From IMG/VR virus record IMGVR_UViG_3300032286_001748: DNA of 64,000 nucleotides; one strand, given 5' to 3'. Each line of letters opens with the position of its first letter. Within the stretch, counting starts at the first letter, position 1. The DNA is from an uncultured virus (IMG/VR IMGVR_UViG_3300032286_001748). Taxonomy: Duplodnaviria; Heunggongvirae; Uroviricota; Caudoviricetes. Of the stretch, positions 378 through 40,936 are shown piece after piece. Below the pieces are notes generated by a model. It saw only the letters and a program-made list of their open reading frames with translations, did not search any database and was not told the DNA's origin. The translations under genes were made by a program, and so were the position numbers.

Positions 378-607
378 CCGGGGATCGGAAGGCGGGGGTA
401 GCGCGGGCGACGGACGGGCGTGGGTGCGCGCGGCGTCTGGGCGTCCACATAGAACGCGCCCGCCAGGACCGCGACGATGGAGCCCACGAGGACGTAGCCT
501 AGAACCGGGATACGGGAGGGTGCGGGATCTTCCCCGACCGTCGCACGCCGGGTCGGGTCGGCGGTGACCGCCGTCAGCACGTCGAGGTCAAGGCGGGTGT
601 CATTCAT
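374..607 (-). CDS. Small single-TM membrane protein
   Basis: 77 aa with hydrophobic stretch VLGYVLVGSIVAVLAGAFYV; 4-bp overlaps with both neighbours. Confidence 0.7.
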   Translation of the reverse strand: MNDTRLDLDVLTAVTADPTRRATVGEDPAPSRIPVLGYVLVGSIVAVLAGAFYVDAQTPRAPTPVRRPRYPRLPIPG

Positions 608-1488
608 CGGGCACCGGGGGTGGCTCGGATCTCCGTGGCCACCGCGGACGCGGTGACCCCGTCGTACCAGCGGTCGTGGAGGGGGAAATGGGGAAGCGCG
701 CGGGAGAGGGCCGCCCCGCTCCGATAGCCCGCGCGCACGGCCACGTCACGGACCCACGCCGGGAAGGGCGTCCGCCCGGCGCGGGCCGCGCCCCGGAGCG
801 CCTGTCGCGCCACCCGTTTCTGCGGGGAGGGGGTCCGTTTGTTGAAGCTCCCCTCGTCCTCGTAGTCGAGGAGCACGAAGCGCCCGTCGTACCGGCCCCA
901 GTTCTGGGCCCCGTACACGTCCCGCGTCAAGGCGCCCGGCGCCTGCCGCTGGCCCAAGTCCAGCCAGCGTTCCTGCGCGTCCCGCAGGGCCTCTTTGTCG
1001 GCGGCGGAGAGGCGGGCCTCCTCACGACTGTCGCGCGCGACCGGCTCCACCTCGGGGAACACGATCACCCCGGGCGGATAAACGAAGTCGAGCGGGGGCA
1101 GCATCATCCTTCGCACGTCGTCGTCGGCCTCCGACCAAGCGTTGTACTCGCTCTCGCTCCGCAGCGTGCCGTCGTAGCGCCACGGGAGCTTCGCCACGAC
1201 GCCGGGGGCGACGAGGACAGCGACCCGGCTGTAGCCGAAGCCCAGCACCGGAACCCCGAGGGCCTCTTCCAGATCGGCGTGCGAGAAGCTGTAGACGTTG
1301 GGATCGAACTCGACCTCGGTGGGGTCGTCCCCTGCGGCCTCGATCACGTTGCGCGTCCATAGCCTGAGCCGACCGGCGAGGTCGCGCACCCGGGCACGGT
1401 CGAGCGCCTGCGCGCTCCCCAGCCGCTTCCGGACGGTGGAGGCGAGGACGAACCCGCTGAGGATGCCGAAGGTGAGGGGAAGGCTCAT
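604..1488 (-). CDS. Protein kinase-like enzyme with tag A leader
   Basis: Start reassigned to ATG 1488 (ATGA overlap). Gly loop LGFGYSRVAV, VAK lysine, D-x4-NWG catalytic-loop-like segment, LLDY (DFG-like). Confidence 0.7.
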   Translation of the reverse strand: MSLPLTFGILSGFVLASTVRKRLGSAQALDRARVRDLAGRLRLWTRNVIEAAGDDPTEVEFDPNVYSFSHADLEEALGVPVLGFGYSRVAVLVAPGVVAKLPWRYDGTLRSESEYNAWSEADDDVRRMMLPPLDFVYPPGVIVFPEVEPVARDSREEARLSAADKEALRDAQERWLDLGQRQAPGALTRDVYGAQNWGRYDGRFVLLDYEDEGSFNKRTPSPQKRVARQALRGAARAGRTPFPAWVRDVAVRAGYRSGAALSRALPHFPLHDRWYDGVTASAVATEIRATPGAR

Positions 1489-4354: not shown

Positions 4355-5080
4355 TCACGCGCCCAGATCGCGCAGGAGCTTCCGGCGCTGGAGGTTGCGT
4401 TCCTGTCCGACCGCGAGCGCAGACGCCGTGGAGGTGCTGGCAGCGCGGATGGCCGGGCCGACGAGGTAGACGGTCGCCACGATCCCAAGGCCGACGACCC
4501 CGTACTTCACCATCTGGACGTAGTCGGGGGCCGCTGGATCTGTCTTGGGGCTGCGACTGTCGGGCGCGTAGTCGGCCGCCGTGGCGCGGGCCCCCGTGTC
4601 GGTCTGGATCTGGGACACCACGGGGGTCTGGTAGGACGCCTGCCAGGCCTGCCCGATCGCGAGGCGGTCGCTGGTGCTCGCCGCCGCGTACTGCGTGTTC
4701 CACTCCCCGATCCACCGGTCGACCGTCGCGTTGAAGGCGGTCTGCACCTCGGGGGGCATCCCGCCCTGCACCAGCTCGCGCTTCGCGCGCTCGGAGAGGT
4801 CGAGCCACCCCGGCTGCGCGCTCCAACCCTGCGGGCCGTAGTACTGAATGCGAAGGGTTCGGATCTTCGTCCAGACGGCCTTGGCCGCGTCGTTCCACGC
4901 GCCCTTCTGGTACGCGACCATGTAGAACCAGCGCGCGAGGGCCATCCGCACCTCGGGCGGCTTGCCGATGGGCGGGCGCATGGGAATAACCTTCTCCGGC
5001 ACGTCGGTCGGGAGGGTGAAGGTGTCGGTCTCCGCGCCGAAGGCGGGGGCGACGAGCGCCAGGAGCAGGCTATCCGCCAC
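4355..5080 (-). CDS. Protein with C-terminal TM tail shared with 10123..11358
   Basis: GTG start with GGAG; tail KYGVVGLGIVATVYLVGPAIRAASTSTASALAVGQERNLQRRKLLRDL. Confidence 0.7.
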   Translation of the reverse strand: MADSLLLALVAPAFGAETDTFTLPTDVPEKVIPMRPPIGKPPEVRMALARWFYMVAYQKGAWNDAAKAVWTKIRTLRIQYYGPQGWSAQPGWLDLSERAKRELVQGGMPPEVQTAFNATVDRWIGEWNTQYAAASTSDRLAIGQAWQASYQTPVVSQIQTDTGARATAADYAPDSRSPKTDPAAPDYVQMVKYGVVGLGIVATVYLVGPAIRAASTSTASALAVGQERNLQRRKLLRDLGA

Positions 5081-5729: not shown

Positions 5730-6266
5730 TCAGGCCCGGTTCATGGGCGAGCGCTCGTTGGTGGAGATGGCCGGGCCTTGCACCCAGGTCGCACAGGTCC
5801 GCGTGGACGCGCACTTGAAGTTGTGCGCCCAGCAGTAGCCGAGGACGGCCCCCGACGCCATCGCGGCCGCCTCGTAGGCGTCCGGGGCGTAGCTCCGGGG
5901 CATGCAGGCCTTCATCGTGGGCGACACGTCGAAGACCCCGCAGTTGCCGCAGCGCATCGTCTTCGTCTCTGCGATCTGCTCGGCGCTGGGGTTCTGCGAC
6001 CAGCGACTCGCGATCTTCTTCCAGAACCAGAGCGAGGGGATGCCGGGGTTCGGCGGGCCGTAGTCAAACATCCGGATCGCCCGGTCCCGGTTCGACGTGT
6101 TCAGCGCGATGTCCTGCGTCGGGGCCGGGCAGGCCGGGCCCGCCTTCGCGCGGGAACCGCGGCGACGGAGGAGGGGGAGGTAGGGGTTCATGCGCGACTC
6201 CGCGAGGAGGGAAGCGGCGGCGAGGGCGCCGACGGAGAGGAGGGTGAGGGGGAGGCCGTTTTTCAT
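5730..6266 (-). CDS. Cys-rich conserved phage protein with tag A leader
   Basis: CPAPTQDIALN..NR, YGPPNP, RCGNC, LGYC..HNFKC..RTC..W: pattern recalled from uncultured-phage hypothetical proteins. Confidence 0.7.
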   Translation of the reverse strand: MKNGLPLTLLSVGALAAASLLAESRMNPYLPLLRRRGSRAKAGPACPAPTQDIALNTSNRDRAIRMFDYGPPNPGIPSLWFWKKIASRWSQNPSAEQIAETKTMRCGNCGVFDVSPTMKACMPRSYAPDAYEAAAMASGAVLGYCWAHNFKCASTRTCATWVQGPAISTNERSPMNRA

Positions 6267-6940
6267 CGGTACACCGTCCCGTCGAGCACGAAGGCGCGGA
6301 TGGAGACGGCCGGGGCGAACTTCACGCGCGGGTCGGGCTGGATGCGGGCACCCCGGAGCATCGCGGGGGTGAAGTCGCGGGCCCGGAACCCCGAGCGGAA
6401 GAAGATCTGAACCGGCACGCGCACGTCCCCGGCGAAGCGGCGGATCGCCTGCATCCGGTGGCGCCCCTCGTGGCTCCGCACCCGCAGGCCGCCGAACACG
6501 GGCCCAAGATCGTCCTCGATGTCGTAGGGGGAGATCGGAAGGCCGTCCCGGTCGAGGACCTCGACGACGAGGAACGGGGGGCCGAACGCGGCCCCCTCGC
6601 GCAGCTTGGCCTCGAGCCCCTTCACGAGGTCGCTCGCGCCGTCGATGGGCGGGTTCAGCGCCAGCCAGTCGGAGACCGGCATCCAGACGACGAAGCCCTT
6701 GTAGGTGATGTTCGCGTTGTCCGACACCTCTCCGATCCCCTCGCGCGGGTCGAAGGTCACCGTCGCGCCCCGCTCCGAGGTGACGGTGTAGGGGCGCTCG
6801 GGGTCGAAGGCGTCCCCGTCCCGCAGCACACCGAGGGAGGCCTCGGGGAGGGGGGAGCGAGAGCCACGCCGACGCACGGCGCCCGCCACCGCGAGCGCGC
6901 CGACGGAGAGCAGGGCGAGGGGGAGGCCAGAGCGACTCAT
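6263..6940 (-). CDS. ParB/sulfiredoxin-like domain protein with tag A leader
   Basis: HEGRHRMQAI resembles the ParB-N GxxR motif, followed by VPV; ATG 6940 overlaps the upstream stop. Confidence 0.65.
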   Translation of the reverse strand: MSRSGLPLALLSVGALAVAGAVRRRGSRSPLPEASLGVLRDGDAFDPERPYTVTSERGATVTFDPREGIGEVSDNANITYKGFVVWMPVSDWLALNPPIDGASDLVKGLEAKLREGAAFGPPFLVVEVLDRDGLPISPYDIEDDLGPVFGGLRVRSHEGRHRMQAIRRFAGDVRVPVQIFFRSGFRARDFTPAMLRGARIQPDPRVKFAPAVSIRAFVLDGTVYR

Positions 6941-7581
6941 CGGTTCTCCACGCGGCGCGCCAGCTCGACCAGCCACGCCGCGAACGCGGGAGGGGTCAGG
7001 TGACGCTTCGACTTCGCCATCCGCTCGATCACGCCGCGCGAGACGCGCCCCTCGACCCGCGAGGGCGGAGGCGGGACCTGTTCGGGGAGCGGGGGGATCC
7101 GATTCGGCGGAACCCCCACAATGTAGAGCCACGTCCGCTTCTCGGCCGGATGGCCCCACCAGTGCTGCGACACCTCGATCGTGTAGCCGCCCCAGGCGTC
7201 CGGCGGCTCCCCGGGCTTCGGCATCCCCATCGCGCGCCAGAGCTTGCTGCGGCGCGGGTGCTCCAGAACGCCGCCCCAGGTCCGGACCTGATCGACCGCG
7301 ACCGGGCCCGTGCGTCCGTCGTCATGGGCGCGGGCCGAGTAGTTGCCCCAGTGCCCACACGGAGGATGGGCCACGACCGGATCGGGCCCGGCGTAGGTTG
7401 TTGCGTCCTCCTCCGCGCCGTAGGCCGCCACGCCGGGGAGGGCCGCATACGGCCCCCGGCGCAGATCGACGTACAGGGCGGCGACCGTCGCAGAGCGGTT
7501 CGCGGCGCCGTGCGCGCGAAACGCGCCCGCCACCGCGAGCGCCGCGACCGCGCCGAGGGCGAGGGGGAGGCCGCTGTTCAT
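6937..7581 (-). CDS. Minimal DNA cytosine-C5 methyltransferase-like protein with tag A leader
   Basis: VVAHPPC (motif IV), GGVLEHP (motif VI variant), Q..WGH.AEKRTWLY, C-terminal TPPAFA. Confidence 0.7.
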   Translation of the reverse strand: MNSGLPLALGAVAALAVAGAFRAHGAANRSATVAALYVDLRRGPYAALPGVAAYGAEEDATTYAGPDPVVAHPPCGHWGNYSARAHDDGRTGPVAVDQVRTWGGVLEHPRRSKLWRAMGMPKPGEPPDAWGGYTIEVSQHWWGHPAEKRTWLYIVGVPPNRIPPLPEQVPPPPSRVEGRVSRGVIERMAKSKRHLTPPAFAAWLVELARRVENR

Positions 7582-8303
7582 CGAACCTGCTCGGCCGCCA
7601 CGAGTCGCTTCTCGACCACGTCCCACGCGATGCGCGGCAGCACCACCTCGAGGTAGCCCTTTCGGTTGTTTTTGCGGTCGAGGTAGTAGGCGTGTTCCCA
7701 CACGTCGATGATGAGCAGCGGGCGCGCGCCGACGAGCACCTCGTTCTGGTGGTTGCCCACCGGCATGAGGACGAGTTGGCGCAGCTCGGGGCTGTACGCG
7801 AGCACGACCCAGCCGCTCCCTTGGATGCCGAGGCCCACGTCTCGGATCTCCCGCAGCGCTTCCTTCACCGAGCCAAAGTCGCGCAGGAGGGACGCACGCG
7901 TGCGCGGCCCTGGCTGGGTCACCGCCGCGCCGTCCGGACGCAGGTTCTCCCAGTAGAGTTTGTGGAGGATGGAGCCTCCCCCGTTGAACATCGCGTTCCG
8001 CCAGACCGGCATCAGCATCGCCACGCGCTGCGCGTCGTCGTAGGTAGCAGCCCGCGCGTTCCGCAGGGCCTGCATCGCGGTGTTGTAGCCCTTGACGTAG
8101 GACGCCTGGTGGGTGGTGTAGTGCTCGGTCACCGTGGCGGGAGACACCGCCGGCACGAGCGCGTCGGTGGCGTAGGGCAGCGGCGGGAGATCGACGGTCG
8201 GCGCGTTGGCCGAGCCCCGGCGCCGGTCGAGCGCGACCGCAGCCCCGATGAGGCCGAGACCGGCGGCCCCGAAGAGGAGCGCGTTGCGGGTGTTCGTCTC
8301 CAT
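7578..8303 (-). CDS. sod: Fe/Mn superoxide dismutase with tag A leader
   Basis: LPPLPYATDALVP, HYTTHQASYV, NGGGSILHKLYWENL, GSGWVVL, DVWEHAYY signature. Confidence 0.95.
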   Translation of the reverse strand: METNTRNALLFGAAGLGLIGAAVALDRRRGSANAPTVDLPPLPYATDALVPAVSPATVTEHYTTHQASYVKGYNTAMQALRNARAATYDDAQRVAMLMPVWRNAMFNGGGSILHKLYWENLRPDGAAVTQPGPRTRASLLRDFGSVKEALREIRDVGLGIQGSGWVVLAYSPELRQLVLMPVGNHQNEVLVGARPLLIIDVWEHAYYLDRKNNRKGYLEVVLPRIAWDVVEKRLVAAEQVR

Positions 8304-8304
8304 G

Positions 8305-8706
8305 TCATTCCTCCGCAGGGTAGCCGTAGCGGGCTATGATCGCGTCTTCAATCGCCTCGTCCAAGGCGAGCGTATCGGCGTAGGCCTCGGTGTAGCGGGA
8401 GGAGACATCGTAGCCCATGACGCCCGAGAGGGTGCGTGCCGCCGCCCTGTCGGTGTAGTCCGAGGACTGCCAGCGGGAGAACGTGTACCACGGGTGCTCG
8501 CTCCGGCTCCCCGACCGGCGTGCGCCCTCGCTGACGGCAGCGAGCACGCCCACCGCGCCCAGCGTGAGCCAGAGGCCGGCGCTGGGGACGCAGGTACACG
8601 GCTTCCCCGGTTCGACGTTGCGGCACCCGCACGGACGGCGGCACGGGCAGGCGCCCGCGCGACGGCAGCGACAGGGGCAGGAATCGGGGCATCCGCAGGG
8701 GGTCAT
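8305..8706 (-). CDS. Protein with metallothionein-like Cys-rich N-terminus, TM helix and GSR motif
   Basis: MTPCGCPDSCPCRCRRAGACPCRRPCGCRNVEPGKPCTC (11 Cys) then GLWLTLGAVGVLAAVSEGARRSGSRS. Confidence 0.65.
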   Translation of the reverse strand: MTPCGCPDSCPCRCRRAGACPCRRPCGCRNVEPGKPCTCVPSAGLWLTLGAVGVLAAVSEGARRSGSRSEHPWYTFSRWQSSDYTDRAAARTLSGVMGYDVSSRYTEAYADTLALDEAIEDAIIARYGYPAEE

Positions 8707-17869: not shown

Positions 17870-20266
17870 TCACCCGCGAGCGAGGATCGCCTCGGCTTGG
17901 CGCAGGAGCGCGCGACGGGAGCGGGGCGTGCGGTTGGGGCTGCCCGTCCCCTGCTTCCGGTAGCCACCCTTCGCGAGGGCCTTCTGCAGGAGGGCGACCG
18001 CCTGAGAGGCGAGCGGGATCAAGGTGGGCACGTCCGCGCGCAGCGCGTTGAGCTGGGCGGGGGTCAAGACCTCCCTCCACTCCGTGCCGTAGAAGCCGGG
18101 CCCCGAGACGTCGTCCTTGTAGAGGGTGAGGACGATCTGCGTGTTGTCTCCGTCGCTGTCTGCGACATCCGTGTAGAGGCGGATCTTGAAGTCCTCCTCG
18201 GGCGTGTGCTCCTCGTCCATCTGGGTCGGGAACCCCGCCTCGGAGAACAGCCGCGCGAACTCGACGGCGAAGCCGTACAGGGGCGACGTCTTCTCGCCGG
18301 CCATGCGATCGAAGATGCGTGCGTCCGCGCGGCCCCAACTCTTCCGCATCTTCACCTTGGCCTCGGGCTTCTTGCGCGGCTTCTTCGGCGCGGCGGGCGT
18401 GGAGGCGCCCTTCATCCCGAGCAGCCGCGCCGTGAGCAGCGTGAGCGGCGCGAGGAGCTGGGCCGTCCGGTCCGCCACCGACTCCCGCTTCGACGCGAAG
18501 GCCTCGTCGTGCTCAGGCAGCCCGAGCGCGTGGGTCACCTCGTGGCAGGCCTTGTTGTGCAGGTAGGCCGCGATGACCGCCGGGTTATCGGGGAGCGCCT
18601 GCGCGAGCTTGAGGACCGGGACCGGGTTGATCGAGAAGAGCCGGTTGTTCTTGGCGTCGTACTCGGCCCGGGTGCTGTCGTCGAAGAGGAAGCCCACCGT
18701 GAAATCCGGCGCGCGGCCGCGCACCTCGGCGTACACGAGCTGCACCGCGAGCCGCCAGAGGGCGAGCAGCGGGAGGAGGGCCGAGGGGTTCTTCAGGTAC
18801 GGCGCGAGCCGCTTCTTGTCCCACTGGGCGTGGTTGATCTTGAGCTTGCCGGCCCCGGCGAAGGGATTGCTGCCCCCGTCCGACCGCTTGGGGCGGGCGG
18901 CCTGGGGCTTCGCTTCCGGGGGCCGCTGCTGGAAGACGACCGTCTCCGCGAGGCGCTGGAAGGCCTCGGGCGTCTGGCCCGCGGTGGAGAGCGAGGTCTG
19001 GCGCTGCGGGGGGATCTGACGCTCGACCTGGCGGAAGGCCTGCCGGATGGCGTCCCCGGTCTGCCCGAGGGTCGCGAGGATCGCCCGGATCGCAGGATCG
19101 TCCGCCGCGAGCTGAAGGAGCGCCGCCATCTGGCCCTCGGTCAGGGCCTTCTTCTGGGGGTCGACCTCGTCCTCCCCGGTCAGCTCGGGCTCGGGCCCGC
19201 GGATGCTGGAGAGCACGTCCACGTTGAACTGGCCGAGGATGCGCGTGAGCGTCCGCTCGGCCGGGCCGCTGAGCGACATGCGGGAGGCCGTGAACGGGTA
19301 GCCGTCCTCCTTGGGCTGGATCTTCGTCGTGAGATCCACGATCACATCGAACTCGGCCTTCCCGTTCGCGAGCGACACGCTGAACTGGGTGAGCCCGACG
19401 AGGCGAACGTAGAGGTTCCCCCCGTCCTGACCCCGCTTGTACACGGTCACCGTCCCGGTCGTCCCGGGGCCCCAGTCGGCCCCCTCCTCGACGACCGTGC
19501 CTTTCCCCGAGAAGGCGTAGGGGACGCGGATGCCGTTGTAGAAGATCGGAAACGCGGTCTGGTTCGTCGCGAGGAAGGAGGTGATGCGCTCGGGGGTGGA
19601 CTGCACCCGCCCCTGGCTCCAGTAATAGTCGTACTTCTTTGCGACGTCGTTCACCGCGAGCCGCAGCCCCTGCCGGTAGGGGGCGCGCCGGATCTGGATG
19701 TCCGTATTGAACCCCTTCGCGATGAAGCGGTGGTCGCGCGTGTCGAGGACCCAGGTGAAGGTCGAGCTGGCCCCAAGCAGGAGCGCCTTGGCGAGCCCGA
19801 ACCCGCCGGCCTGGACGTCCTGACGGGAGGCGGTCAAGAGCTTCGTCGTGTCGCCCAGCGAGAGGAACTTCGTGTCGACGATCTCGCGGGACATTCCGAT
19901 CCCATTGTCGTCCCACACGAGCGTCCGGTTCTCCGGATCCCACTCGACCTTGAAGACGCCCTCCTGGATCTCCCCCGCCTTGATCGCGTCCCGGATGGCG
20001 TCCCGGCTGTTCTGGAGCGCCTCGCGGGTCGCGACCACAGGCACATCGACGTAGCTGCCGTAGAGCTTCTCCGCCGCCAGCGTCCACATCGCCGCCGCGT
20101 TGACCTTCGCGCGGGTCGTCCCGACGACCTGGCCCTGCGGGGACGCGCCGTGCTGCTGGAGGAAATCCGCGAGGGTGGCGCGCGAGCCGCGCCGAGGCGC
20201 GAGCGCGCCCGCCAGGGCCAGCACGCCGACCGCGCCGAGCGCGTAGGGGAGACCGGAGCGAGACAT
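17870..20266 (-). CDS. GHKL (Hsp90/MORC-like) ATPase fused to an HExxH domain; carries tag A followed by tag B
   Basis: REALQNSRDA, DDNGIGM, GGFGLAK Bergerat motifs; CHEVTH...HDEAF. Confidence 0.85.
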   Translation of the reverse strand: MSRSGLPYALGAVGVLALAGALAPRRGSRATLADFLQQHGASPQGQVVGTTRAKVNAAAMWTLAAEKLYGSYVDVPVVATREALQNSRDAIRDAIKAGEIQEGVFKVEWDPENRTLVWDDNGIGMSREIVDTKFLSLGDTTKLLTASRQDVQAGGFGLAKALLLGASSTFTWVLDTRDHRFIAKGFNTDIQIRRAPYRQGLRLAVNDVAKKYDYYWSQGRVQSTPERITSFLATNQTAFPIFYNGIRVPYAFSGKGTVVEEGADWGPGTTGTVTVYKRGQDGGNLYVRLVGLTQFSVSLANGKAEFDVIVDLTTKIQPKEDGYPFTASRMSLSGPAERTLTRILGQFNVDVLSSIRGPEPELTGEDEVDPQKKALTEGQMAALLQLAADDPAIRAILATLGQTGDAIRQAFRQVERQIPPQRQTSLSTAGQTPEAFQRLAETVVFQQRPPEAKPQAARPKRSDGGSNPFAGAGKLKINHAQWDKKRLAPYLKNPSALLPLLALWRLAVQLVYAEVRGRAPDFTVGFLFDDSTRAEYDAKNNRLFSINPVPVLKLAQALPDNPAVIAAYLHNKACHEVTHALGLPEHDEAFASKRESVADRTAQLLAPLTLLTARLLGMKGASTPAAPKKPRKKPEAKVKMRKSWGRADARIFDRMAGEKTSPLYGFAVEFARLFSEAGFPTQMDEEHTPEEDFKIRLYTDVADSDGDNTQIVLTLYKDDVSGPGFYGTEWREVLTPAQLNALRADVPTLIPLASQAVALLQKALAKGGYRKQGTGSPNRTPRSRRALLRQAEAILARG

Positions 20267-20610
20267 CAGCCCTCCAGCAGATCGAACATGTACTCAAACG
20301 GGTCGCCGCGCGTGAAGTGCATGAACACCTCCTCGGCCCGCTGGTTCGCCAAGCTGGCCTCCGCGGCGGTGAAGAGGGGCTCCCCGGTCGAGGTCCGGAC
20401 GATGTCGGATGCGTCGTCCTCGAGGTGGTAGCTGTGCCCGCTCCGCACCAGCTCGCGGAGGTAGGCCTCCGCGTCGGCCTGAGATCGGATCGCGCGGTGG
20501 AGGAGGGGGAAGGCGTGCGCGCGGCTCCCGCGGGACGCGGGGGAGGCGGCGGCGAGCGCGATGGCCCCTGCGCCCAGCGCCAGCAGGCCGATGGCGAGGG
20601 GCTTGCCCAT
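20266..20610 (-). CDS. Hypothetical protein with tag A leader
   Basis: MGKPLAIGLLALGAGAIALAAASPASRGSRA plus a small domain YHLEDDASDI...LFT..EA. Confidence 0.75.
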   Translation of the reverse strand: MGKPLAIGLLALGAGAIALAAASPASRGSRAHAFPLLHRAIRSQADAEAYLRELVRSGHSYHLEDDASDIVRTSTGEPLFTAAEASLANQRAEEVFMHFTRGDPFEYMFDLLEG

Positions 20611-21092
20611 CAAGACAGCGCAGCGAGGAGCTTGTTGGCGAGAGTGAGGTCGCGCAGGCTGTCGTAGCGCTTCCCGAGGACGTCCACGACCTCCTCCTGT
20701 CCCTGCAGGAACACGTCCTGATCGACCCGGTATCCGCCCTGCCCGTCGTCGGTGTAGAGCGTGGCGCCAACGTACGGCATGCGGAGGTTGGAGACGACCA
20801 CCAGGACGTTGTCGCCGTAGACATAGGCGTCCACGTCGTCCCCGCTCCCCGCGGGCGTCACGATGCGCTTCTTCCCGATCCGGATGACCTGCGGCGGGTG
20901 GAACATCCCCTTGGACTCCTCCGCCGTCGCCTTGACGAAGGTGAAGGGGAGGGTGCGGAGGCGGGTGCCGGTGGCGCGGGCGGCGCTGCCGGTGGAGCCG
21001 TACAGGCCCGCCTTGTTCGCGGCCCCCACCGCCGCAACGACGCCGACGAGTCCGAGGGTGACGAGGGCGCCGTTGTCGAGGATCTTGGTCAT
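20610..21092 (-). CDS. Hypothetical protein with tag A leader (DNG subtype)
   Basis: MTKILDNGALVTLGLVGVVAAVGAANKAGLYGS; leader nearly identical to that of 29005..29466. Confidence 0.75.
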   Translation of the reverse strand: MTKILDNGALVTLGLVGVVAAVGAANKAGLYGSTGSAARATGTRLRTLPFTFVKATAEESKGMFHPPQVIRIGKKRIVTPAGSGDDVDAYVYGDNVLVVVSNLRMPYVGATLYTDDGQGGYRVDQDVFLQGQEEVVDVLGKRYDSLRDLTLANKLLAALS

Positions 21093-21572: not shown

Positions 21573-22307
21573 CTAACGCATCCGGGCGGCGTGCGCCTCG
21601 ACGAGCGCGCGCAGGCGGCGGGCGAACGAGGTGTCGTTGAAGGGGTTCGCGTTGAAGCTGTCGTGGTCGAGGGTCAGGCCGAGGTCCGAGACGTCCTCGC
21701 CCCGGATGCGAAGCACCCGCACATCCGACCCCGCTCCGCCCACAACCCCGATCACCGCGTCGAACACGCCGTCCCGCTTGAAGTACGGCTCGCCCCAGGC
21801 CTCCAGCACCTTGGCGGCGTAGCCGAGGTCGTCCAGGGACGAAAACGCCGTGAGGGACGAGCGTCCGTACGATCCGTCGAACCCCTGCAGGCTGACCTTC
21901 AGCCGCGGGGCCGAGGCGTGCTCGTAGATCGCCTTCTTCGCGAAGTTCAGGTCGGTCAGATCGTTCTGGTAGATCTCGGCCGAGCCATACGGGTCGGTCT
22001 GCCAGGGAGGGGTCTGCCGGCGCGACGTGGAGCGGTAGCCGGTGCTGGAGGGCGTGCGCGGGGCTTGGCGCTGGGGCGCCGGGGGCGTCATCGTCGCAAG
22101 GAGCCGCTGGGCCATCGCCCGCTCGTTCGCGGTCGCGCCCGAGCTGGGCGCGGCCATGCGCTGCAGATCGCGGTAGCGCTTGGCGGGGTCGACGGCGGCG
22201 CTGCCGCGCCCCGTTGAGCGCGAACCCTGGCCCTCCGACCACGCCGCCGCGCCGACGCCGACCACGCCGACGCCGAGGGCGAGCCAGGGAAAGAGGGGGC
22301 GCGCCAT
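21573..22307 (-). CDS. Hypothetical protein with tag A leader and DUF2786-like helical hairpin
   Basis: RYRDLQRMA...ATANERAMAQRLL after GRGSAA. Confidence 0.7.
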   Translation of the reverse strand: MARPLFPWLALGVGVVGVGAAAWSEGQGSRSTGRGSAAVDPAKRYRDLQRMAAPSSGATANERAMAQRLLATMTPPAPQRQAPRTPSSTGYRSTSRRQTPPWQTDPYGSAEIYQNDLTDLNFAKKAIYEHASAPRLKVSLQGFDGSYGRSSLTAFSSLDDLGYAAKVLEAWGEPYFKRDGVFDAVIGVVGGAGSDVRVLRIRGEDVSDLGLTLDHDSFNANPFNDTSFARRLRALVEAHAARMR

Positions 22308-22308: not shown

Positions 22309-22629
22309 TCAGTAGCCTTCTTCGTACTCGGCCATCGACTGGAAGTCGTGGGACGCCGTCTCAGCGTTCCCGCCCGCGTAGATCTTCTTGGTCTTCGGGT
22401 AGTAGAACACCCGCTCGCCCTTCTTGAACGCGAGCCCCTTCGCGTCGGTGCCGGCGTACTTCGCGGTCATCCAGTAGGGGTCGCCGCCGTAGGAGGTGTA
22501 GGGGCGATAGGCGGCCGAGCCCTTCCGGCCCTCCTGCACCGCAGCCGCGCCGATGCCGACGACACCGACGCCGAGGGCGATCCAGTAGGCGGGGGAGGAG
22601 AAGACGGGGGACTTCGTGGTTTCGGCCAT
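22309..22629 (-). CDS. Small hypothetical protein with tag A leader
   Basis: TGGAGCCTCCC-ATG; cargo DPYWMTAKYAG...KKGERVFYYP. Confidence 0.75.
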   Translation of the reverse strand: MAETTKSPVFSSPAYWIALGVGVVGIGAAAVQEGRKGSAAYRPYTSYGGDPYWMTAKYAGTDAKGLAFKKGERVFYYPKTKKIYAGGNAETASHDFQSMAEYEEGY

Positions 22630-22652: not shown

Positions 22653-23144
22653 TCAGGCCGCGCGGCGGGCGCGACCGGTGAGGGAGAGGAGGGCTTCGAT
22701 CTCCGCAGCCGTCTCGGCGCGCTCGCTCGGATCGGTGAGGCGCGGGAGCGCTGCTTGATACTGGTGCAGGGTCGTGCGCCACGAGTTGATGTTCGCGGGG
22801 TCGCGCTTCCCCACGTCCGTCGTGTTCCACCACGCCTGGAGCTTCGGGTAGCGCGCGAACACGGCCTGCATCACCCGGTAGCGCCGGAGCCGGTTCGACG
22901 GCGTGGCGGCGTAGGTGAGCGCGAGCTGGCCGTGCCGGTAGTCGTGGATGGGGTAGCTGCGGTCCTCGGGGAAAACGAAGTCCCCCGCCGGGAGCCGGGC
23001 GCGGGACAGGTCCGTGAAGGCCGCGCGGCTCCCCTCGGGCAGCACCGTCCGCGAGCCCTTCGGGCCCCAGAGCTGGGCTACGACCACGAGCAGGCCCGTC
23101 GCGCCGAGCGCGAGGAGGGTGCCGTTGTCGAGGGCCTTGGTCAT
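22653..23144 (-). CDS. DUF6582-like phage protein with tag A leader
   Basis: RARLPAGDFVFPEDRSYPIHDYRHGQLAL pattern. Confidence 0.65.
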   Translation of the reverse strand: MTKALDNGTLLALGATGLLVVVAQLWGPKGSRTVLPEGSRAAFTDLSRARLPAGDFVFPEDRSYPIHDYRHGQLALTYAATPSNRLRRYRVMQAVFARYPKLQAWWNTTDVGKRDPANINSWRTTLHQYQAALPRLTDPSERAETAAEIEALLSLTGRARRAA

Positions 23145-23145: not shown

Positions 23146-23640
23146 TCAGTCCTCGTCCCCTTCCCGCGCCATCGAGATCAGGTCGTCGAGCCGGTGCGCG
23201 AGGCGGGAGATCGCAGGGTTCTTCTTCATCGCGGCGTCGAGCTTCTTGCCCAGCGCGTCTGCCTTGCTCCGGGGGAGGCCCGCCTCGACGAACAGCTCGC
23301 CGTCCCAGAGGCCGATGCCGTGCCCGACGAGGCTTGCGTAGGTGCGGTAGGCGACGGCATCCATGTCGATCCCATCCACCCCCACATCGTTCTGGATGTC
23401 CCATGCGTGGTAGGCCGCCCGGACCTTGTCGGTGAACGCCTCTGCGGCGCGCCGCATCTCCGGCGTGACCTCACCCTCGGGCTCCGTGAAGAACTCGACC
23501 CACTCGCTCGCCGCGTAGCGGCGCCCGCGGCTGCCCGCCTTGCGGCCCTGCATCGCCGCGAGCGTGATGCCGCCGATGCCCACCGCCAGCTCGAGCCAGT
23601 AGGTGGGAGACGTGAAGACGGAGCGGTAGGGGGTGCTCAT
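23146..23640 (-). CDS. Hypothetical protein with tag A leader
   Basis: MSTPYRSVFTSPTYWLELAVGIGGITLAAMQGRKAGSRG; leader related to that of 22309..22629. Confidence 0.7.
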   Translation of the reverse strand: MSTPYRSVFTSPTYWLELAVGIGGITLAAMQGRKAGSRGRRYAASEWVEFFTEPEGEVTPEMRRAAEAFTDKVRAAYHAWDIQNDVGVDGIDMDAVAYRTYASLVGHGIGLWDGELFVEAGLPRSKADALGKKLDAAMKKNPAISRLAHRLDDLISMAREGDED

Positions 23641-24299
23641 CGGGAGCCTCGGTGACGAAGGGAGAAGGCCTGAACAGAGAGGTCGCGCGGGGGTTCGGCC
23701 GTGTGACGGGCGGCAGCGGGGCGGCGCGCGGCTGAGCCGGTGCCGGCGGTGCGCTGGCGCAGCAGGTAGCGGTTCGTGTCGTGCGCGTCGGCCATCGCCA
23801 TCAAGAAGTCGTCGAGGCCGAGCGACAGCTCGCCCGAGGCCTTGAGCGCGTCGTAGACCGCGCGGAGCGCGAGCTGCAGCGACTCCTCCGCGTGGAGGGC
23901 CTGGGTGATCGGATTCGAGGACGCGGACTGCCAGGCCTCGATGAGCCGCAGGGACTTCTCGGTCACCACCCGGCTGTTCACGAAGGAGGGGCCCGCGTAG
24001 GCCACGATGCGCTCGCCCAGCGTGTCGATCTCGTCCTGGAGGGCCGGGGAGCCGTCCCCGCCCGCGTAGAGGCGCTGGAGGAGCTGGTGGTCGCCGTAGA
24101 AGGTCGACCCCGATACGATCCAGTGGCCCTCGTGGATGGAGATCTGCATCGCGCGCAGCACCGCGAGGAGGCCCTGGAGCGCCTCGCCGGAGGCGGGCGC
24201 GAGAGAGCGCGAGCCCCGGCGCGCAAATGCGCCCGCGGCCGCCGTGAGCCCCACCGCGCCGAGCGCGAGGAGCGTGCCGTTGTCGGTCAAGCGAGCCAT
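23637..24299 (-). CDS. dps: Dps/ferritin-like protein with tag A leader
   Basis: HWIVSGSTFYGDHQLLQRLY...EIDTLGERI ferroxidase pattern; C-terminal H..NRYLL. Confidence 0.8.
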   Translation of the reverse strand: MARLTDNGTLLALGAVGLTAAAGAFARRGSRSLAPASGEALQGLLAVLRAMQISIHEGHWIVSGSTFYGDHQLLQRLYAGGDGSPALQDEIDTLGERIVAYAGPSFVNSRVVTEKSLRLIEAWQSASSNPITQALHAEESLQLALRAVYDALKASGELSLGLDDFLMAMADAHDTNRYLLRQRTAGTGSAARRPAAARHTAEPPRDLSVQAFSLRHRGSR

Positions 24300-25832: not shown

Positions 25833-25836
25833 CTTC

Positions 25837-28963: not shown

Positions 28964-29009
28964 GGGGGGGGGGTAGACTACCCTTCCTCTCTCTGGAGTC
29001 TCCCATGGC
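28952..29009 (+). repeat. Direct repeat copy 1 (dcm 3' end, G-run, GGGTAGACTACCC palindrome, pyrimidine tract, RBS, ATG)
   Basis: Matches 29478..29533 with few differences. Confidence 0.85.
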
Positions 29010-29466
29010 CGGCAAGATCCTCGACAACGGCGCCCTCGTGACCCTCGGAATCGTCGGCGCCGTCGCCGCCGTGGGGGCCGCGAACAAGGCGGGGCTCTAC
29101 GGGAGCCAAAGCAAAATTCAACAAACCTATACAGACAAGGCTGGAGATCGCATCTTCTCCGGGAAGAGCGCAAAACAGAACCATGAGGCGGCTGAAGCCT
29201 TCGCGAGCGGACTTCGTGCGCGTGTGTTCACGTCTCCCGTTTTCAAGCGCTTCATTGAGTCTTCGGGTTCGCGATGGGACGGCGTGGGGCATCACCGGCA
29301 TGCCTTTGAGGTCACCATGATCGGAGACGATGCCATCGTGGATCAAGGTGTTCTCATCGACTTCGGAGAGACGGACGGGAACGTCTACGTCAACGGACGC
29401 ATGCGGAAATACCAAGATCTACTGGAATCCGTCGCGAACATCCACGGATACAGCATCTTTGATTGA
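29005..29466 (+). CDS. Hypothetical protein: tag A leader fused to lower-GC cargo
   Basis: MAGKILDNGALVTLGIVGAVAAVGAANKAGLYGS; the sequence becomes AT-richer right after the leader (caaagcaaaattcaacaaacctataca). Confidence 0.8.
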   Translation: MAGKILDNGALVTLGIVGAVAAVGAANKAGLYGSQSKIQQTYTDKAGDRIFSGKSAKQNHEAAEAFASGLRARVFTSPVFKRFIESSGSRWDGVGHHRHAFEVTMIGDDAIVDQGVLIDFGETDGNVYVNGRMRKYQDLLESVANIHGYSIFD

Positions 29467-29477: not shown

Positions 29478-29533
29478 GACGGGAGTAGGGGGGGATAGAC
29501 TACCCTCCCTCTCTCTCTGGAGTCTCTCATGGC
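29478..29533 (+). repeat. Direct repeat copy 2
   Basis: gacgggagtaggggggg-atagactaccct..ctctctggagtctctcatggc. Confidence 0.85.
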
Positions 29534-30050
29534 AACCCTCTCTACGTTCCTCGCCAAGTACCGCACGGGAAGCCGCGCCGTGGGGGCCGCGAACAAGGCG
29601 GGCCTGTACGGGAGCCGAAGCCATGCGGGCCTGCGGACATGTCCCGGATGTGGACAGCCGATCACCTTTGACCAGGGATACACCGAGTGTGGTGGCGAGG
29701 GCGAGGGCATCTGCGCGAATGCCGTGTTTGCGTATGACCAGAAGACGCGCGGTCGTCCGTACGCGGTCGCGGAGTGGAAGGGCATGTGGGACAACGAGCG
29801 CACCATGCCGACGAAGAAGATGTGCGAAGCCATCCTGGCCGCCCACGACTCCGTCGCGTCCGAGCGCTACATCGTCGTCTCGATCCACAACGGGACCGAC
29901 TGGGGCGTGTTCAAGGCCAGCCCGGAGGACATGGATCGAGGAGACGACATGTCGCACGCGGAGGCGATCCAGACCGCGAAAGACGCAGCCGCGGGTCAGA
30001 AGGGGGCGCGCTGGTACGACTTCGGGGATGACGAGTACAACGAGGAGTAG
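29529..30050 (+). CDS. Hypothetical Cys-containing protein with a hybrid tag B/tag A leader
   Basis: MATLSTFLAKYRTGSRAVGAANKAGLYGSRS then CPGC. Confidence 0.8.
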   Translation: MATLSTFLAKYRTGSRAVGAANKAGLYGSRSHAGLRTCPGCGQPITFDQGYTECGGEGEGICANAVFAYDQKTRGRPYAVAEWKGMWDNERTMPTKKMCEAILAAHDSVASERYIVVSIHNGTDWGVFKASPEDMDRGDDMSHAEAIQTAKDAAAGQKGARWYDFGDDEYNEE

Positions 30051-35274: not shown

Positions 35275-35305
35275 GGTCCGCCCCTAACCGGTCGCGCCGG
35301 GACGT

Positions 35306-35500: not shown

Positions 35501-35503
35501 GGT

Positions 35504-35554
35504 CTACTCGTAGTCGCGCACGGCGACGAAGGAGAGGAAGTCGGAGAAACCCAT
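35504..35554 (-). pseudogene. 16-aa remnant ORF ending in the ligase C-terminus
   Basis: MGFSDFLSFVAVRDYE*; SFVAVRDYE* is identical to the ligase end at 37003. Confidence 0.65.
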
Positions 35555-36999: not shown

Positions 37000-37002
37000 G
37001 GC

Positions 37003-38253: not shown

Positions 38254-38254
38254 C

Positions 38255-40936
38255 TCAGTGGGCACCGTAGAAGACGGGGAGGTCCTTGGCGAGCCAGCAG
38301 GCGCGGCAGTTGGCCGTACGGCACGACTTCGCCTCCTTCTCCGTGACGCGGCCACCCTCGTCCTTGAAGTCCATCTTCGTGTACACGGGGCACTGGTAGG
38401 CCCGAACTCCGCGGGTGTCGTTCATCACCGGGTACTGACCGTCGATCTTCGCGGCAACCCCGCTACCCGCGTTCAGACCCGCGATGTGCGGGATGGCGAT
38501 GGGCTGCGAGCGCGTCCGACGAACATAGAGGCTCGACGGACGGAGGGTGAAGTTGGGGAGGCTCGCCAGATCCTTGAGCGACGACATGGATCGGCTCGGG
38601 ACGAACAGCTTGAACTTGTCTGAACCGATCTCGTCCGCCAAGAACTCTCCGGGCGAGAGATCCGTCGTACTCGCCTTGGAGATCGGGCTCCCCTCGGGAA
38701 CATCCTTCCAGCACACCCCACTCCCGCGCCTCCACGTCCGGAGGGAGAAAGAAGGGCGGCTCAAAAAGTTGGCGAACGCCCGCATCTTGGCGCTCCACGA
38801 CTTGGCTTCGGCATCGTTCAGAGGAACGAGCTTGCCCCACTGGCGCGTGGGGGCCCAGAACTGGACACCCGGAAGGGACCGTGCCGCAAGAACCCACGCC
38901 TCCTGGTAGGGGCCCCCGATCCCGAAGTCCCCAGAGTCATGCAGACGGAAGAAGCCAGCCACATCCCCGTTTCCGATGACCTTTCTCCGAGCGAGCCCGT
39001 TGAAGAACTCCACGGTGTCGTCCGGAACCGACTGCTGCTTCACCGACTGAGCCTGCGGAACAACCGCATCCCCCTCGACGCGCATCGGATGGATGGAGAG
39101 GCTCTGGATGCGAAGCGGGGTAGAGTCGACCGGCGTCCGCTTGCTCGACCGACCCTGCGGCGTCAAGATGCGACCCCCTTCCCACACCCCGATCTCCTGG
39201 CAGGAGCGCTGGTTGTGCTTGGTGTGCTTGGCGTAGGTCCAGATCATCTGGGCGAGATTCGCGGCACACCCCTCCACGCCCCCCACCCCCTTGAGCAGGT
39301 CCTCGACCCACTTCTTCCGTGCGGCCTGCTGGGTCATGTTGTTCGCGTAGCCGTAGTTCGCGCCCATGGCGTAACAGACGGTGCAGATGTAGCTGGGAAC
39401 CAGCCGATCTCCCTTCCCCTCCTTGCGCGCGACAGGAACGTAGACACCCGACTCCAGCTTCTCGATCTCCTGATTGTTGCGGGAGATCTCACGGCGCTTG
39501 CCCTCGATATTCTTGCGAACATCAAGGATGTAAGCCTGCGTGCGGACCTTCCTCCTTGGAGAGGGACGGAGATCATCCTCCAGCGCCAGGATGCGTGCCT
39601 GCGCGCCCTTGATGAGATTCCGACGACGCTCGATGGCCGACTTGACCTCGGCCGTCATCATCGGGGCCTGCCGGCGCGTCTTGGCGCTCGTCGGAAGCCC
39701 GATGTCACCCGAAGGACATGTCCCGCCTGCGGAGGCGGCTCCCGCCGGGAGGCCGAACGACGGGGAGGCCATCTTGGAGGTGCAGGTCACGAGCGCGATG
39801 GACTTCATCCCATACGGGAAGGCCATCGATCCAGAGACGATAGCGAGAAAGAACACGCCGACCGGATCTTCCCCACGATGAAGGGAGAGGATGGGAGAAC
39901 CGGAGAGACCCTTGAGGAGCTGAGCATCCTCGTCCTCCTCCGCCTCGTCGAGCAGATCGGCTTCCTGCTCTGCGTCCGATGCTACGACACCGTCGACCGA
40001 GTCAGATCCGGTCGCGCCACGCATGGGCGGAGCCGGGAACGCCATGCCCGACCCGCTCGGAGCCACAACGGAGACCGAACGAAGCGAACGCTCCATCTGC
40101 TCGTAGGTGTGGACCGTACCGGCAGCCGAGAGCTTGATGTTGTTCTCTTCTTTGACAAGGGGTACGTCCGGCATCCGCTTCGGAACGACCAGCGTGAAGC
40201 GCAGGTCTGCGAAGAGGGACTGGGAGGTCTTGCCTTCGACCGTTTCGTAGACCGGTTCCCGCTGGGCCTCGGAGAGGAGCGTGACCTTCCTCGGCTTATT
40301 GGCCGGTGGGTCCTCGACCTCGACCACAACCGGATTCCCCGCGTGATACTCCGAATCCCGGGCCTCCTGCTGGAGGAGGTAGATGCACCACGCGCGCTTT
40401 GCATAAAGAGCAGCAAAGTAGCGAGCATAAACCCCGTTCTCTTCTTCAGAAGACGCAGCGCGGTGACGCGACCGCCAGTCCTTGAGCTTCTCGTCCGCAT
40501 ACGACGAGAGCGTCATCAGACCACCCGCACCCTCCTTGTCCTCGGGATCCGGGCAGACATACGCGGCCTCGAGCAGGACGCGCTGATAGGCATCGAGCGC
40601 GCCGATCTTCTCCCGATCTCCCTCGTCCAGAAGCTGACGCATCTCGTTCTGGTAGAAGGCCAAGAAGGCCTTGCCACGCTCATTGGAACGACCGCAGTAC
40701 CCGTAGATACGGGAAAGGGGAACCACGAACCCGGCACGCGAAGAGAAGCGCTGGCGAAACAGATAGCTCCCGCGCGCCTCGTCTTCCTTCTCGACCGCGC
40801 AGTTAGCCGAACCGCACGACGAGCAGGCATGGTGAGAACGCGATCCACTGGACCGACTCGCCACCACCGACCCAAGCGCAAGCGCGCCCACGGCGCCCAG
40901 CGCCCAGAGCATCCCGTTGTCTGCGTTCTTCGCCAT
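38255..40936 (-). CDS. Large protein with GP88-like (radical-SAM-related) domain and tag A leader
   Basis: TSKMASPSFGLPA..TCP...CTVCYA, FRLHDSGDF, FWAPTR, C-terminal CP...CRACW...YGAH; lower GC than its flanks. Confidence 0.7.
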   Translation of the reverse strand: MAKNADNGMLWALGAVGALALGSVVASRSSGSRSHHACSSCGSANCAVEKEDEARGSYLFRQRFSSRAGFVVPLSRIYGYCGRSNERGKAFLAFYQNEMRQLLDEGDREKIGALDAYQRVLLEAAYVCPDPEDKEGAGGLMTLSSYADEKLKDWRSRHRAASSEEENGVYARYFAALYAKRAWCIYLLQQEARDSEYHAGNPVVVEVEDPPANKPRKVTLLSEAQREPVYETVEGKTSQSLFADLRFTLVVPKRMPDVPLVKEENNIKLSAAGTVHTYEQMERSLRSVSVVAPSGSGMAFPAPPMRGATGSDSVDGVVASDAEQEADLLDEAEEDEDAQLLKGLSGSPILSLHRGEDPVGVFFLAIVSGSMAFPYGMKSIALVTCTSKMASPSFGLPAGAASAGGTCPSGDIGLPTSAKTRRQAPMMTAEVKSAIERRRNLIKGAQARILALEDDLRPSPRRKVRTQAYILDVRKNIEGKRREISRNNQEIEKLESGVYVPVARKEGKGDRLVPSYICTVCYAMGANYGYANNMTQQAARKKWVEDLLKGVGGVEGCAANLAQMIWTYAKHTKHNQRSCQEIGVWEGGRILTPQGRSSKRTPVDSTPLRIQSLSIHPMRVEGDAVVPQAQSVKQQSVPDDTVEFFNGLARRKVIGNGDVAGFFRLHDSGDFGIGGPYQEAWVLAARSLPGVQFWAPTRQWGKLVPLNDAEAKSWSAKMRAFANFLSRPSFSLRTWRRGSGVCWKDVPEGSPISKASTTDLSPGEFLADEIGSDKFKLFVPSRSMSSLKDLASLPNFTLRPSSLYVRRTRSQPIAIPHIAGLNAGSGVAAKIDGQYPVMNDTRGVRAYQCPVYTKMDFKDEGGRVTEKEAKSCRTANCRACWLAKDLPVFYGAH

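Follow-up and report, generated by a model that had tools for sequence, protein, structure and literature searches.

The DNA analysed here, called the window throughout, is a 64 kb stretch from an uncultured virus (IMG/VR record IMGVR_UViG_3300032286_001748), with 66-72% GC and genes predominantly on the minus strand; genes were called by third-position GC. Its proteins include two C5-cytosine methyltransferases, an ATP-dependent DNA ligase, a PTH2-like hydrolase, an HNH/endonuclease VII-like protein and a peptidoglycan-binding protein, and by its sequence the window reads as part of a virus of bacteria. When 20 kb of it was compared by megablast with a phage collection, no match was found. 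The element of interest is an N-terminal module, named Tag A, which consists of a polar cap, an 18-20-residue hydrophobic helix rich in Gly and Ala, basic residues, and then G-S-[R/A]. Fifteen genes of the window carry it on otherwise unrelated cargo proteins (Table 1).

Fifteen genes share one leader

A profile was built from the 15 clearest leaders and run over the 765 six-frame open reading frames (ORFs) of at least 40 aa in the window. The 15 leaders themselves scored 23-45 bits. The next-best ORF reached 13.9 bits, owing to the C-terminal helix of gene 40946-41407, and all remaining ORFs stayed below 6 bits. Upon leave-one-out, 13 of the 15 leaders were still above 15 bits, and the other two scored 8.5 and 6.1. 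A second profile, built on 150 library matches of which some are the window's own proteins, recovered 15 of the 18 starts that a sequence-only reading of this DNA had listed as leader genes, namely 6266, 6940, 7581, 8303, 8706 (internal), 20266, 20613 (written there as 20610), 21092, 22307, 22629, 23144, 23640, 24299, 29005 (plus strand) and 40936. Two of these were weak, 20613 at 12.4 bits and 8303 at 9.7 bits. The three others, starting at 377, 1488 and 21544, remained below 6 bits with the second profile: their N-termini are hydrophobic and do not have the Tag A motif, and we no longer count them as members. Both profiles agree that the 15 share one related module.

The start codon of a tagged gene overlaps the upstream stop codon by 4 bases in 6 of the 15 genes (ATGA, once TTGA), and by 1 base in one. 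When paralogous leaders were compared, 5-10 of their 15-31 conserved residues were found to be encoded by different synonymous codons. The likeness between leaders is therefore kept at the protein level, and does not reflect a recent DNA copy.

Tag A beyond the window

A profile of 27 leaders, taken from the window and from metagenome loci, was searched against 1.84 billion protein cluster representatives. It matched 205 clusters at E≤0.001, none of them at E≤1e-10. Among the best 150 of these 205 clusters, the match begins at residues 1-9 in 149; the exception (P0403) has a Cys-rich piece ahead of the tag, as does window gene 8305-8706. The cargo parts of 147 tagged library proteins fell into at least 72 single-linkage groups. 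In a set of 80 metagenome loci around homologues of the GHKL cargo (760 kb, many with 68-76% GC), 23 leader matches were detected, all confined to six close-relative loci, which rules out a composition artefact. The locus L004 is syntenic with the window, with 35-81% protein identity, and has at least 7 tagged genes in 22 kb. Searches of viral contigs with the 798-aa GHKL protein and with its alignment gave no relative.

Cargo proteins

The cargo of gene 7578-8303 is a superoxide dismutase (SOD; Pfam E 8e-26 and 1e-17), in which the Pfam SOD domains begin at residue 38. Within the viral clade (at least 56% identity), all SOD homologues bear the leader, apart from some fragments truncated at the N-terminus and a single fusion protein. 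The nearest cellular SODs begin at the conserved core or bear Tat-type signals. Two low-GC relatives have a Lys-rich version of the leader layout. For the Dps cargo (23637-24299), Dps chains of the PDB align from residue 32 (E 5e-5). The GHKL cargo is of the Hsp90/HtpG type (E 4.8e-6); among the 48 homologues of this 798-aa protein, the leader is kept down to about 35% identity, and more distant ones begin at the conserved core. The GP88-like cargo was matched over 42 residues (Pfam E 2.5e-10). These four names are among eight that the sequence-only reading had given, and they hold; the other four do not. Its 'C5-MTase-like' protein (6937-7581) belongs to phrog_12600 (E 6.6e-51), with a weak methyltransferase match (E 2.9e-4). 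Homologues of this protein were found in 14 phage records, each alignment starting at query residue 28-57, and in some phages it is annotated as a methylase. The kinase, ParB-like (6263-6940, a cargo without assignment) and HMG-like labels were supported neither by Pfam (E≤1) nor by PDB sequence searches; such PDB searches found nothing with genes 6263-6940 and 604-1518.

Outside the clade, homologues of the SOD, of the Hsp90-like ATPase and of the phage-family cargo are without the leader. This, together with the 205 clusters, the N-terminal position and the at least 72 cargo groups, bears out the initial proposal of a portable tag on unrelated cargo, and we consider it nearly certain that Tag A is a real, selected and portable module.

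Most tagged proteins have no recognisable family: a Pfam match at E≤0.001 was obtained for only 18 of the best 150. The domains found in these 150 include GP88 (three), ART-PolyVal (three, two with NUDIX, in P0376 and P0407), RadC (two), YunG (two) and RelA_SpoT (one).

Anatomy of the tag and predicted topology

The anatomy was measured on the best 150 matches, and the figures are hence partly selected by the profile itself. In the 15 window leaders, the polar cap exists in several subtypes (K-I-L-D-N-G, S-G-L-P and S-P-x-Y-W), the form K-x-L-D-N-G being frequent, and the helix abounds in Gly, Ala, Leu and Val. In the 150 matches, the cap is followed by an uncharged run with a median of 19 residues (range 15-28) and a median Gly/Ala/Ser/Thr content of 56%. 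The N-terminal flank has a net charge of 0 in 94 of the 150 and never above +1; the 12-aa flank after the run has a mean net charge of +2.3, and at least +1 in 138, with 2-4 Arg/Lys placed within 1-6 residues after the run. G-S lies 1-6 residues past the run in 144 of the 150, and is followed by R in 82 cases, A in 24, G in 13 and S in 8. Columns of the helix are highly conserved (G 97%, V 89%, G 84%, A 96%, A 84%, G 75%), as is the G of G-S (99%). Information content is 2-4 bits within the tag and falls below 0.8 bit directly after G-S-R-[A/S]. Small residues recur every three to four positions in the helix, forming one smooth face, and aromatic residues are present at the helix start in two subtypes. 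In 14 of the 15 window leaders, Kyte-Doolittle means over 19 aa were 1.67-2.13.

By its length, its flanks and its charge asymmetry, the segment fits an N-out/C-in anchor, yet a marginal one. We judge it probable from these features that Tag A is a membrane anchor that would leave the cargo on the cytoplasmic side. The conservation of the helix suggests that it is specifically recognised, rather than serving as a generic anchor.

A hydrophobic leader may also be read as an export signal, of the Sec, Tat or prepilin type, leading to secretion or display and trimmed by the host signal peptidase. The leaders do have a single basic residue close to the N-terminus and a hydrophobic core that ends in small residues (A-G-A); Gly stands ahead of the core in 84% of them, as in prepilins; and the nearest cellular SODs are often Tat-exported. 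However, the core, at a median of 19 aa, is longer than the h-region of a typical Sec-type signal peptide (about 7-15 residues), and what follows is the +2.3 flank with its 2-4 Arg/Lys instead of an uncharged early mature region. Such an Arg/Lys cluster right after the core blocks Sec export. The arginines come after the core, and no twin-arginine precedes it as in Tat signals. With respect to class III prepilin signals, the +5 column after Gly is Leu in 83% and has no Glu, and the basic cluster is again placed after the helix. The sequence is also conserved far more than that of generic signal peptides, and cargoes such as the GHKL ATPase, ADP-ribosyltransferase (ART), NUDIX and RelA/SpoT need cytoplasmic ATP, NAD or nucleotides. 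Export thus described appears very improbable. Two further kinds of signal were discarded, the lipoprotein signal by the absence of any lipobox Cys, and the C-terminal sortase-type sorting signal by its being at the wrong end of the protein.

SAR domains of phage endolysins are also Gly/Ala/Ser/Thr-rich N-terminal helices; they are Sec-exported in an N-in/C-out orientation, with a periplasmic muralytic domain. Tag A resembles them in its G+A+S+T composition (0.56), and may likewise sit only marginally in the membrane. It differs by the basic cluster after the helix and by its cytoplasm-type cargo: no tagged cargo is muralytic, and the peptidoglycan-binding protein of the window (46524-48536) is untagged. 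The SAR assignment was rejected.

GSR joints and candidate proteases

The 15 tagged proteins of the window (4007 aa) contain 13 GSR, whereas the 61 untagged ones (15759 aa) contain 5, two of which sit in the chimeric gene 29529-30050. The permutation SGR is found 0 times in tagged and 6 times in untagged proteins. In library cargo bodies, counted more than 60 residues past the tag, GSR reaches 2.35 per 1000 aa, and its permutations 0.34-0.67. The 49 internal GSR sites have the common context (R/K)x-GSR-A/S, and 38 of the 147 cargoes contain at least two GSR-delimited modules. Cutting the cargoes at GSR yielded 44 downstream modules, 23 of which have a homologue in another protein. For 13 of these 23, homology was flush with both joints, and for 7 of those the rank was different: a module may, for instance, directly follow Tag A in one protein and come after another module elsewhere. 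With random cuts, ten trials yielded 0-6 flush modules and 0-3 at a different rank. The GSR pattern fits the expected look of a processing site between exchangeable modules, and on these grounds GS[R/A] is reasonably likely to be a cut site.

Two genes of the window may encode the corresponding protease (Table 1). The first is the tagged GHKL protein, whose zincin-like domain contains HExxH (H575 E576 H579), a further His (H586) and an Arg, all invariant among 31 homologues, and a near-invariant Glu (E588). The model of the domain has a pLDDT above 90 over the core, with the motif on a helix following a three-stranded sheet; the sheet, the HExxH helix and a helix with a further ligand, which characterise the zincin-like metallopeptidase fold, are all present. 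The combination of ATPase and zincin is kept in 66 of the 80 metagenome loci, including relatives without Tag A. We find it somewhat unlikely that the zincin is the cutter. The second candidate, a strongly conserved protein encoded by 52914-53321, lies between the jelly-roll genes described below and a gene for a 205-aa beta-rich protein, and has a Cys...His...Asp pattern. It is 72% identical to its homologue in two metagenome contigs (L082 and L083); the L082 homologue was matched by Transglut_core at E 4.5e-4, which is sub-threshold. The protein atlas placed it in a cluster at 0.96, with Transglut_core in 13% of members, and a PDB sequence search found nothing. This protein may be the maturation protease of the particle.

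Candidate particle genes

Among the 75 predicted proteins of the window, no Pfam or PHROG match was obtained to terminase, portal, HK97-type capsid, scaffold, head protease or tail families. Three adjacent beta-rich paralogues, putatively of the jelly-roll fold, were found as candidate capsid proteins, and a fourth one at lower coordinates (Table 1). The 244-aa paralogue has 403 homologues, and the 120 listed are at least 56% identical. Its model is an eight-stranded sandwich (pLDDT 77.7), with which Foldseek found nothing in the PDB at E≤1e-3, and in BFVD only unspecific low-TM rows. When genome contigs were scanned with the jelly-roll alignment, the only matches were three short contigs of metagenome-assembled genomes (L081-L083), labelled 'uncultured bacterium/proteobacterium'. 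The gene order of the particle module is kept in these three contigs, and the module is without Tag A. At lenient Pfam and PHROG thresholds, 16 cargo proteins and 22 structural ones gave chance-level matches only. A 19-residue segment with a mean Kyte-Doolittle hydropathy of at least 1.6 is present in 29 of 76 window proteins, 15 of the 29 not being Tag A proteins. A membrane-lined, tailless particle is plausible, because of the jelly-roll paralogues, the conserved module and the many proteins with a hydrophobic segment. The jelly-roll paralogues are highly conserved across metagenomes and no head-tail genes were recognised, and the virus may belong to a lineage of large bacterial viruses without tails.

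These genes bear on a further explanation, in which Tag A would be a membrane-free capsid-targeting peptide of the T4/P1 type, its helix binding the scaffold or inner capsid and a head protease cutting at GS[R/A]. Shared loading peptides are established for T4 internal proteins (PMC3012670) and, as an N-terminal signal, for P1 DarB (PMC9024508). The abrupt end of conservation at GS[R][A/S] also resembles a propeptide junction. However, the tag has transmembrane length, flanks and charge asymmetry, and if a soluble protein bore an uncharged helix of 19 residues, membranes would readily capture it. Moreover, the window has no recognised HK97 capsid, portal, scaffold or prohead protease, and the candidate capsid proteins do not have the N-terminal GS[R/A] motif. 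We hold this explanation to be improbable.

Several other genes may be mentioned. Divergently adjoining the particle module, 56683-57843 (plus strand) encodes a zinc-ribbon and Walker-A ATPase, which may serve in packaging or else be a repair protein of the RadA/KaiC kind; a PDB sequence search gave chance-level rows only, and Pfam and PHROG gave no family. At 43640-45403 and 48639-49454 (minus strand), a 587-aa protein starts with about 20 tandem acidic hexapeptides (D-D-D-L-G-E), with hydrophobic segments downstream, and beside it stands a 271-aa protein, very rich in Lys and Arg, with A-K-A-Q repeats, possibly a DNA-condensing protein. Two tandem paralogues at 60716-62665 (plus strand; 325 and 322 aa) are near-identical over their N-terminal 70 or so residues and have diverged C-terminal parts, as in receptor-binding or spike proteins.

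Other shared sequences and tRNA-like genes

A second N-terminal tag, Tag B, was observed at 11374-13352 and 30057-38265 (minus strand). It reads M-[T/N]-L-[A/S/K]-[Q/D/G]-F-L and is followed by linkers rich in Ala, Pro, Lys and Gln. It is present on 8 genes, mostly of DNA modification or repair (C5-methyltransferase, Mom-like, PAPS-reductase-like, DNA ligase, DUF6884 and tRNA-ribosyltransferase-like). Over six frames the pattern has 10 matches, every one in a real gene. Tag B also occurs at aa 30-38 of gene 17870-20266, directly after the GSR of Tag A, as if cleavage would expose it. Genes 4355-5080 and 10123-11301 (minus strand) have near-identical C-termini of about 50 residues, with a hydrophobic helix, A-A-S-T-S-T-A and a basic tail, which may be a third shared tag. 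Finally, three adjacent tRNA-like genes lie at 25675-25915 (plus strand), one being tRNA-Ile(AAU); ARAGORN reported irregular anticodon loops in two of them (2- and 4-base anticodons).

Table 1. Positions of Tag A leaders, related helices, candidate proteases and candidate capsid genes in the window. Scores are in bits; the second score is that of the profile built on 150 library matches.
Position	Strand	Feature	Gene	Score	Remark
6150..6266	-	Tag A leader, aa 1-39	5730-6266	42.0	12-aa insert before RRRGSR
6857..6940	-	Tag A leader, aa 1-28	6263-6940	36.2	
7501..7581	-	Tag A leader, aa 1-27	6937-7581	31.5	degenerate end HGAAN; phrog_12600 cargo
8208..8303	-	Tag A leader, aa 1-32	7578-8303	28.0	end RRRGSA; Fe/Mn superoxide dismutase
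8503..8586	-	internal Tag A, aa ~41-68	8305-8706	45.5	after a Cys-/Arg-rich 40-aa N-terminal piece
17870..20266	-	tagged 798-aa protein, first candidate processing protease	17870-20266		Hsp90/HtpG-type GHKL ATPase, aa ~50-180; zincin-like metallopeptidase domain, aa ~470-620
20180..20266	-	Tag A leader, aa 1-29	17870-20266	38.2	Tag B-like helix directly after
20521..20613	-	Tag A leader, aa 1-31	20266-20613	23.5; second 12.4	start TTG or next ATG
20991..21092	-	Tag A leader, aa 1-34	20610-21092	31.7; second 49.8	'DNG...ANKAGLYGS' subtype
22218..22307	-	Tag A leader, aa 1-30	21573-22307	31.3	second GS[RA] at aa 35
22513..22629	-	Tag A leader, aa 1-39	22309-22629	41.5	'SPxYW' subtype
23049..23144	-	Tag A leader, aa 1-32	22653-23144	41.7	second GSR at aa 38-40
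23527..23640	-	Tag A leader, aa 1-38	23146-23640	39.6	'SPxYW' subtype
24207..24299	-	Tag A leader, aa 1-31	23637-24299	45.1	Dps-like; C-terminus of the protein also ...RGSR
29005..29109	+	Tag A leader, aa 1-35	29005-29466	39.1; second 54.2	the sole leader on the plus strand
29529..30050	+	chimera	29529-30050		Tag B-like start, GSR, C-terminal half of a Tag A ('AVGAANKAGLYGSR'), cargo; same layout inside P0436
40838..40936	-	Tag A leader, aa 1-33	38255-40936	39.4	893-aa GP88-like protein
40946..41407	-	protein with Tag A-like C-terminal helix (tail-anchor form)	40946-41407	13.9; second 17.1	neighbour of the GP88-like gene also in L004
42553-43566	-	fourth jelly-roll paralogue			
52914..53321	-	135-aa protein of the particle module, second candidate processing protease	52914-53321		possible transglutaminase/papain-fold cysteine peptidase
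53325..56059	-	three adjacent jelly-roll paralogues			322, 244/231 and 290 aa; candidate capsid proteins

Discussion

We propose, tentatively, that Tag A serves as a sequence-specific anchor in the membrane, by which pro-cargo would be sorted into a particle lined with membrane and released by cutting at GS[R/A]; as a whole, this reading falls a little short of an even bet. The helix would insert as an N-out/C-in anchor, the cargo remaining on the cytoplasmic side. The cargo enzymes are of a cytoplasmic type (SOD, Dps and the Hsp90-like ATPase-peptidase here; ADP-ribosyltransferases, NUDIX, RadC and RelA/SpoT in relatives). The virus would recognise the conserved helix sequence, and not hydrophobicity alone, so that the tagged proteins would collect at the viral membrane, which would most likely be the lipid layer of a particle with a jelly-roll capsid and no tail. 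A viral protease would then cut at GS[R/A], removing the anchor and splitting multi-module cargo into units; the tagged zincin domain of 17870-20266 and the cysteine-peptidase-like 52914-53321 are the candidate cutters. The freed proteins would form a ready-made effector set at the next infection. We infer membrane insertion and topology, cleavage, the identity of the cutter and virion loading from sequence features. Sorting of tagged cargo into the particle, taken on its own, seems to us almost as plausible as its contrary.

Several points weigh against this proposal. The helices, with 56% Gly/Ala/Ser/Thr, are only marginally hydrophobic, so that stable insertion is uncertain: the summed apparent insertion energy is slightly unfavourable for the leaders, estimated at about 0 to +6 kcal/mol, and -0.5 to +0.8 for several other helices of the genome. 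The figures of the anatomy bear the imprint of the profile that selected them. G-S is missing in some leaders, as in gene 7581 (HGAAN) and in the L004 orthologue of Dps (RRENRS), and GSR shows no enrichment over the 60 residues that directly follow the tag (0.83 per 1000). The sequence RRGS is also compatible with a basophilic-kinase site. The frequent Tat signals on the nearest cellular SODs hint at an extracytoplasmic ancestry of that cargo. Tailed-phage genes could lie outside the window, because it is a partial genome and relatives are found on contigs of up to 162 kb. Lastly, in assembly of the PRD1 type, the cytoplasmic face of the membrane points to the capsid and not to the DNA lumen. 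An N-out/C-in anchor puts the cargo on this capsid-facing side, and loading into the interior therefore needs a further step.

The main competing explanation is a tether to the host membrane without virion loading, by which DNA-handling and protective proteins would be held at the inner face, as a membrane-bound site of replication or assembly; GS[R/A] would then allow their release at a set time, or their turnover. The anchor features fit this explanation as well, and phage phi29 offers a precedent in p16.7, which binds DNA, is anchored in the membrane and organises replication. Among the cargoes, several work on DNA, shield it or counter oxidative stress (Dps, SOD, the phrog_12600 protein and the GHKL ATPase), and the tagged genes stand amid replication and DNA-modification genes, outside the particle module at 42-56 kb. 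A plain tether, however, needs no conservation of the helix sequence over more than 70 cargo groups, and it leaves unexplained that the joints between modules are coded by the same GSR. The cargo of relatives (ART-PolyVal, NUDIX, RadC, RelA/SpoT) is moreover of a kind argued to act at entry (PMC5512222). Taken together, we find a tether without loading unlikely.

Loading by a shared peptide has precedents. The capsid-targeting sequence (CTS) of T4 is about 10 residues long and is cleaved by the head protease. Like the CTS, Tag A is a short N-terminal peptide on unrelated proteins of one virus, with 15 genes in the window and 205 clusters overall. It differs in being about 30 residues long, of transmembrane type and ended by GS[R/A], whereas the CTS is not a hydrophobic helix of membrane length; it also differs in its context, a window (part of a genome) without recognisable tailed-phage head genes. 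The CTS is common to diverse unrelated proteins, is portable to foreign cargo and binds the scaffolding core of the prohead; its cargo is a variable set of proteins directed against the host, which enter together with the DNA (PMC3012670). In P1, the N-terminal 30 residues of DarB suffice to send a reporter into the particle, and the Dar proteins have no consensus in common (PMC9024508). DarB, a large anti-restriction enzyme, may be compared with tagged cargo, for which an N-terminal packaging signal is proposed here; the Dar proteins differ from the Tag A proteins, which have one consensus in 15 proteins of one genome and in the 205 clusters. The head-tail context of the T4/P1 type was not recognised in the window, and the physical nature of Tag A differs too.

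A further precedent is that of the polyvalent proteins of phages and conjugative elements (Iyer et al. 2017). ART, RadC and RelA/SpoT are among their domains, NUDIX receives one passing mention, and they are argued to travel with the DNA, to act at entry and to be processed by a zincin MPTase (PMC5512222). The effector repertoire of tagged proteins overlaps with that described there (ART-PolyVal, RadC, RelA/SpoT, and methylase-like proteins by weak matches only), and the zincin layout of 17870-20266 fits the description of the MPTase, with HExxH after a three-stranded sheet (PMC5512222). Two or more effector domains in one polypeptide are found in P0376, P0407 and 17870-20266; most window cargoes have a single module. 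Polyvalent proteins are giant multi-domain chains, often with a MuF or portal anchor, in contrast to the mostly single tagged modules and GSR-marked joints of the Tag A system. No MuF or portal domain was matched among the window proteins or the 150 best tagged ones.

With the internal-membrane jelly-roll viruses (PRD1; Sphaerolipoviridae P23-77, HHIV-2 and HCIV-1; SPV1), the likeness may be seen in adjacent paralogues that resemble jelly-roll capsid proteins, many small proteins with a predicted membrane anchor and no head-tail genes recognised in the window. The viruses with vertical single jelly-roll capsid proteins (Helvetiavirae) or of the SPV1 kind are characterised by such capsid paralogues, by an FtsK/HerA-type packaging ATPase encoded beside them and by lipid in the particle; in the window, the gene beside the module is that of the Walker-A ATPase 56683-57843. 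Adenoviruses, asfarviruses and poxviruses process precursors with virion cysteine proteases at a short small-residue site, the protease gene being placed in the morphogenesis module. The reuse of a short site would be similar, and 52914-53321, in the particle module, may be compared with these proteases; the differences are that these viruses are eukaryotic and have other site codes, and that the peptidase call here is a sub-threshold Pfam match on a homologue.

We also considered a more general scheme, in which large tailless jelly-roll bacterial viruses would use a glycine-zipper-like helix to sort dozens of exchangeable modules into their lipid layer, and a co-packaged protease would free them at G-S-R. 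This scheme is possible, if on the doubtful side. If helix sorting and G-S-R release do operate, the virus would therefore deliver a modular enzyme cocktail, which would do the work of polyvalent and T4 internal proteins by other physical means. In open-access papers and bioRxiv, the T4, P1 and polyvalent precedents were found, and no account of a hydrophobic leader shared in the manner of Tag A. Shared loading peptides come from a few tailed phages; none is known that is a membrane-type helix, that occurs at such a scale, or that is accompanied by a three-residue code for swap joints.

Were the proposal true, a simple sequence rule would make it possible to list which effectors an entire lineage of uncultured viruses delivers. 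Many new anti-host proteins would be expected in it, since most cargoes are without a known family, and a portable tag-and-release system for loading lipid-containing particles would be a possible application. The window further strengthens the case that some large bacterial viruses form a group devoid of head-tail genes.

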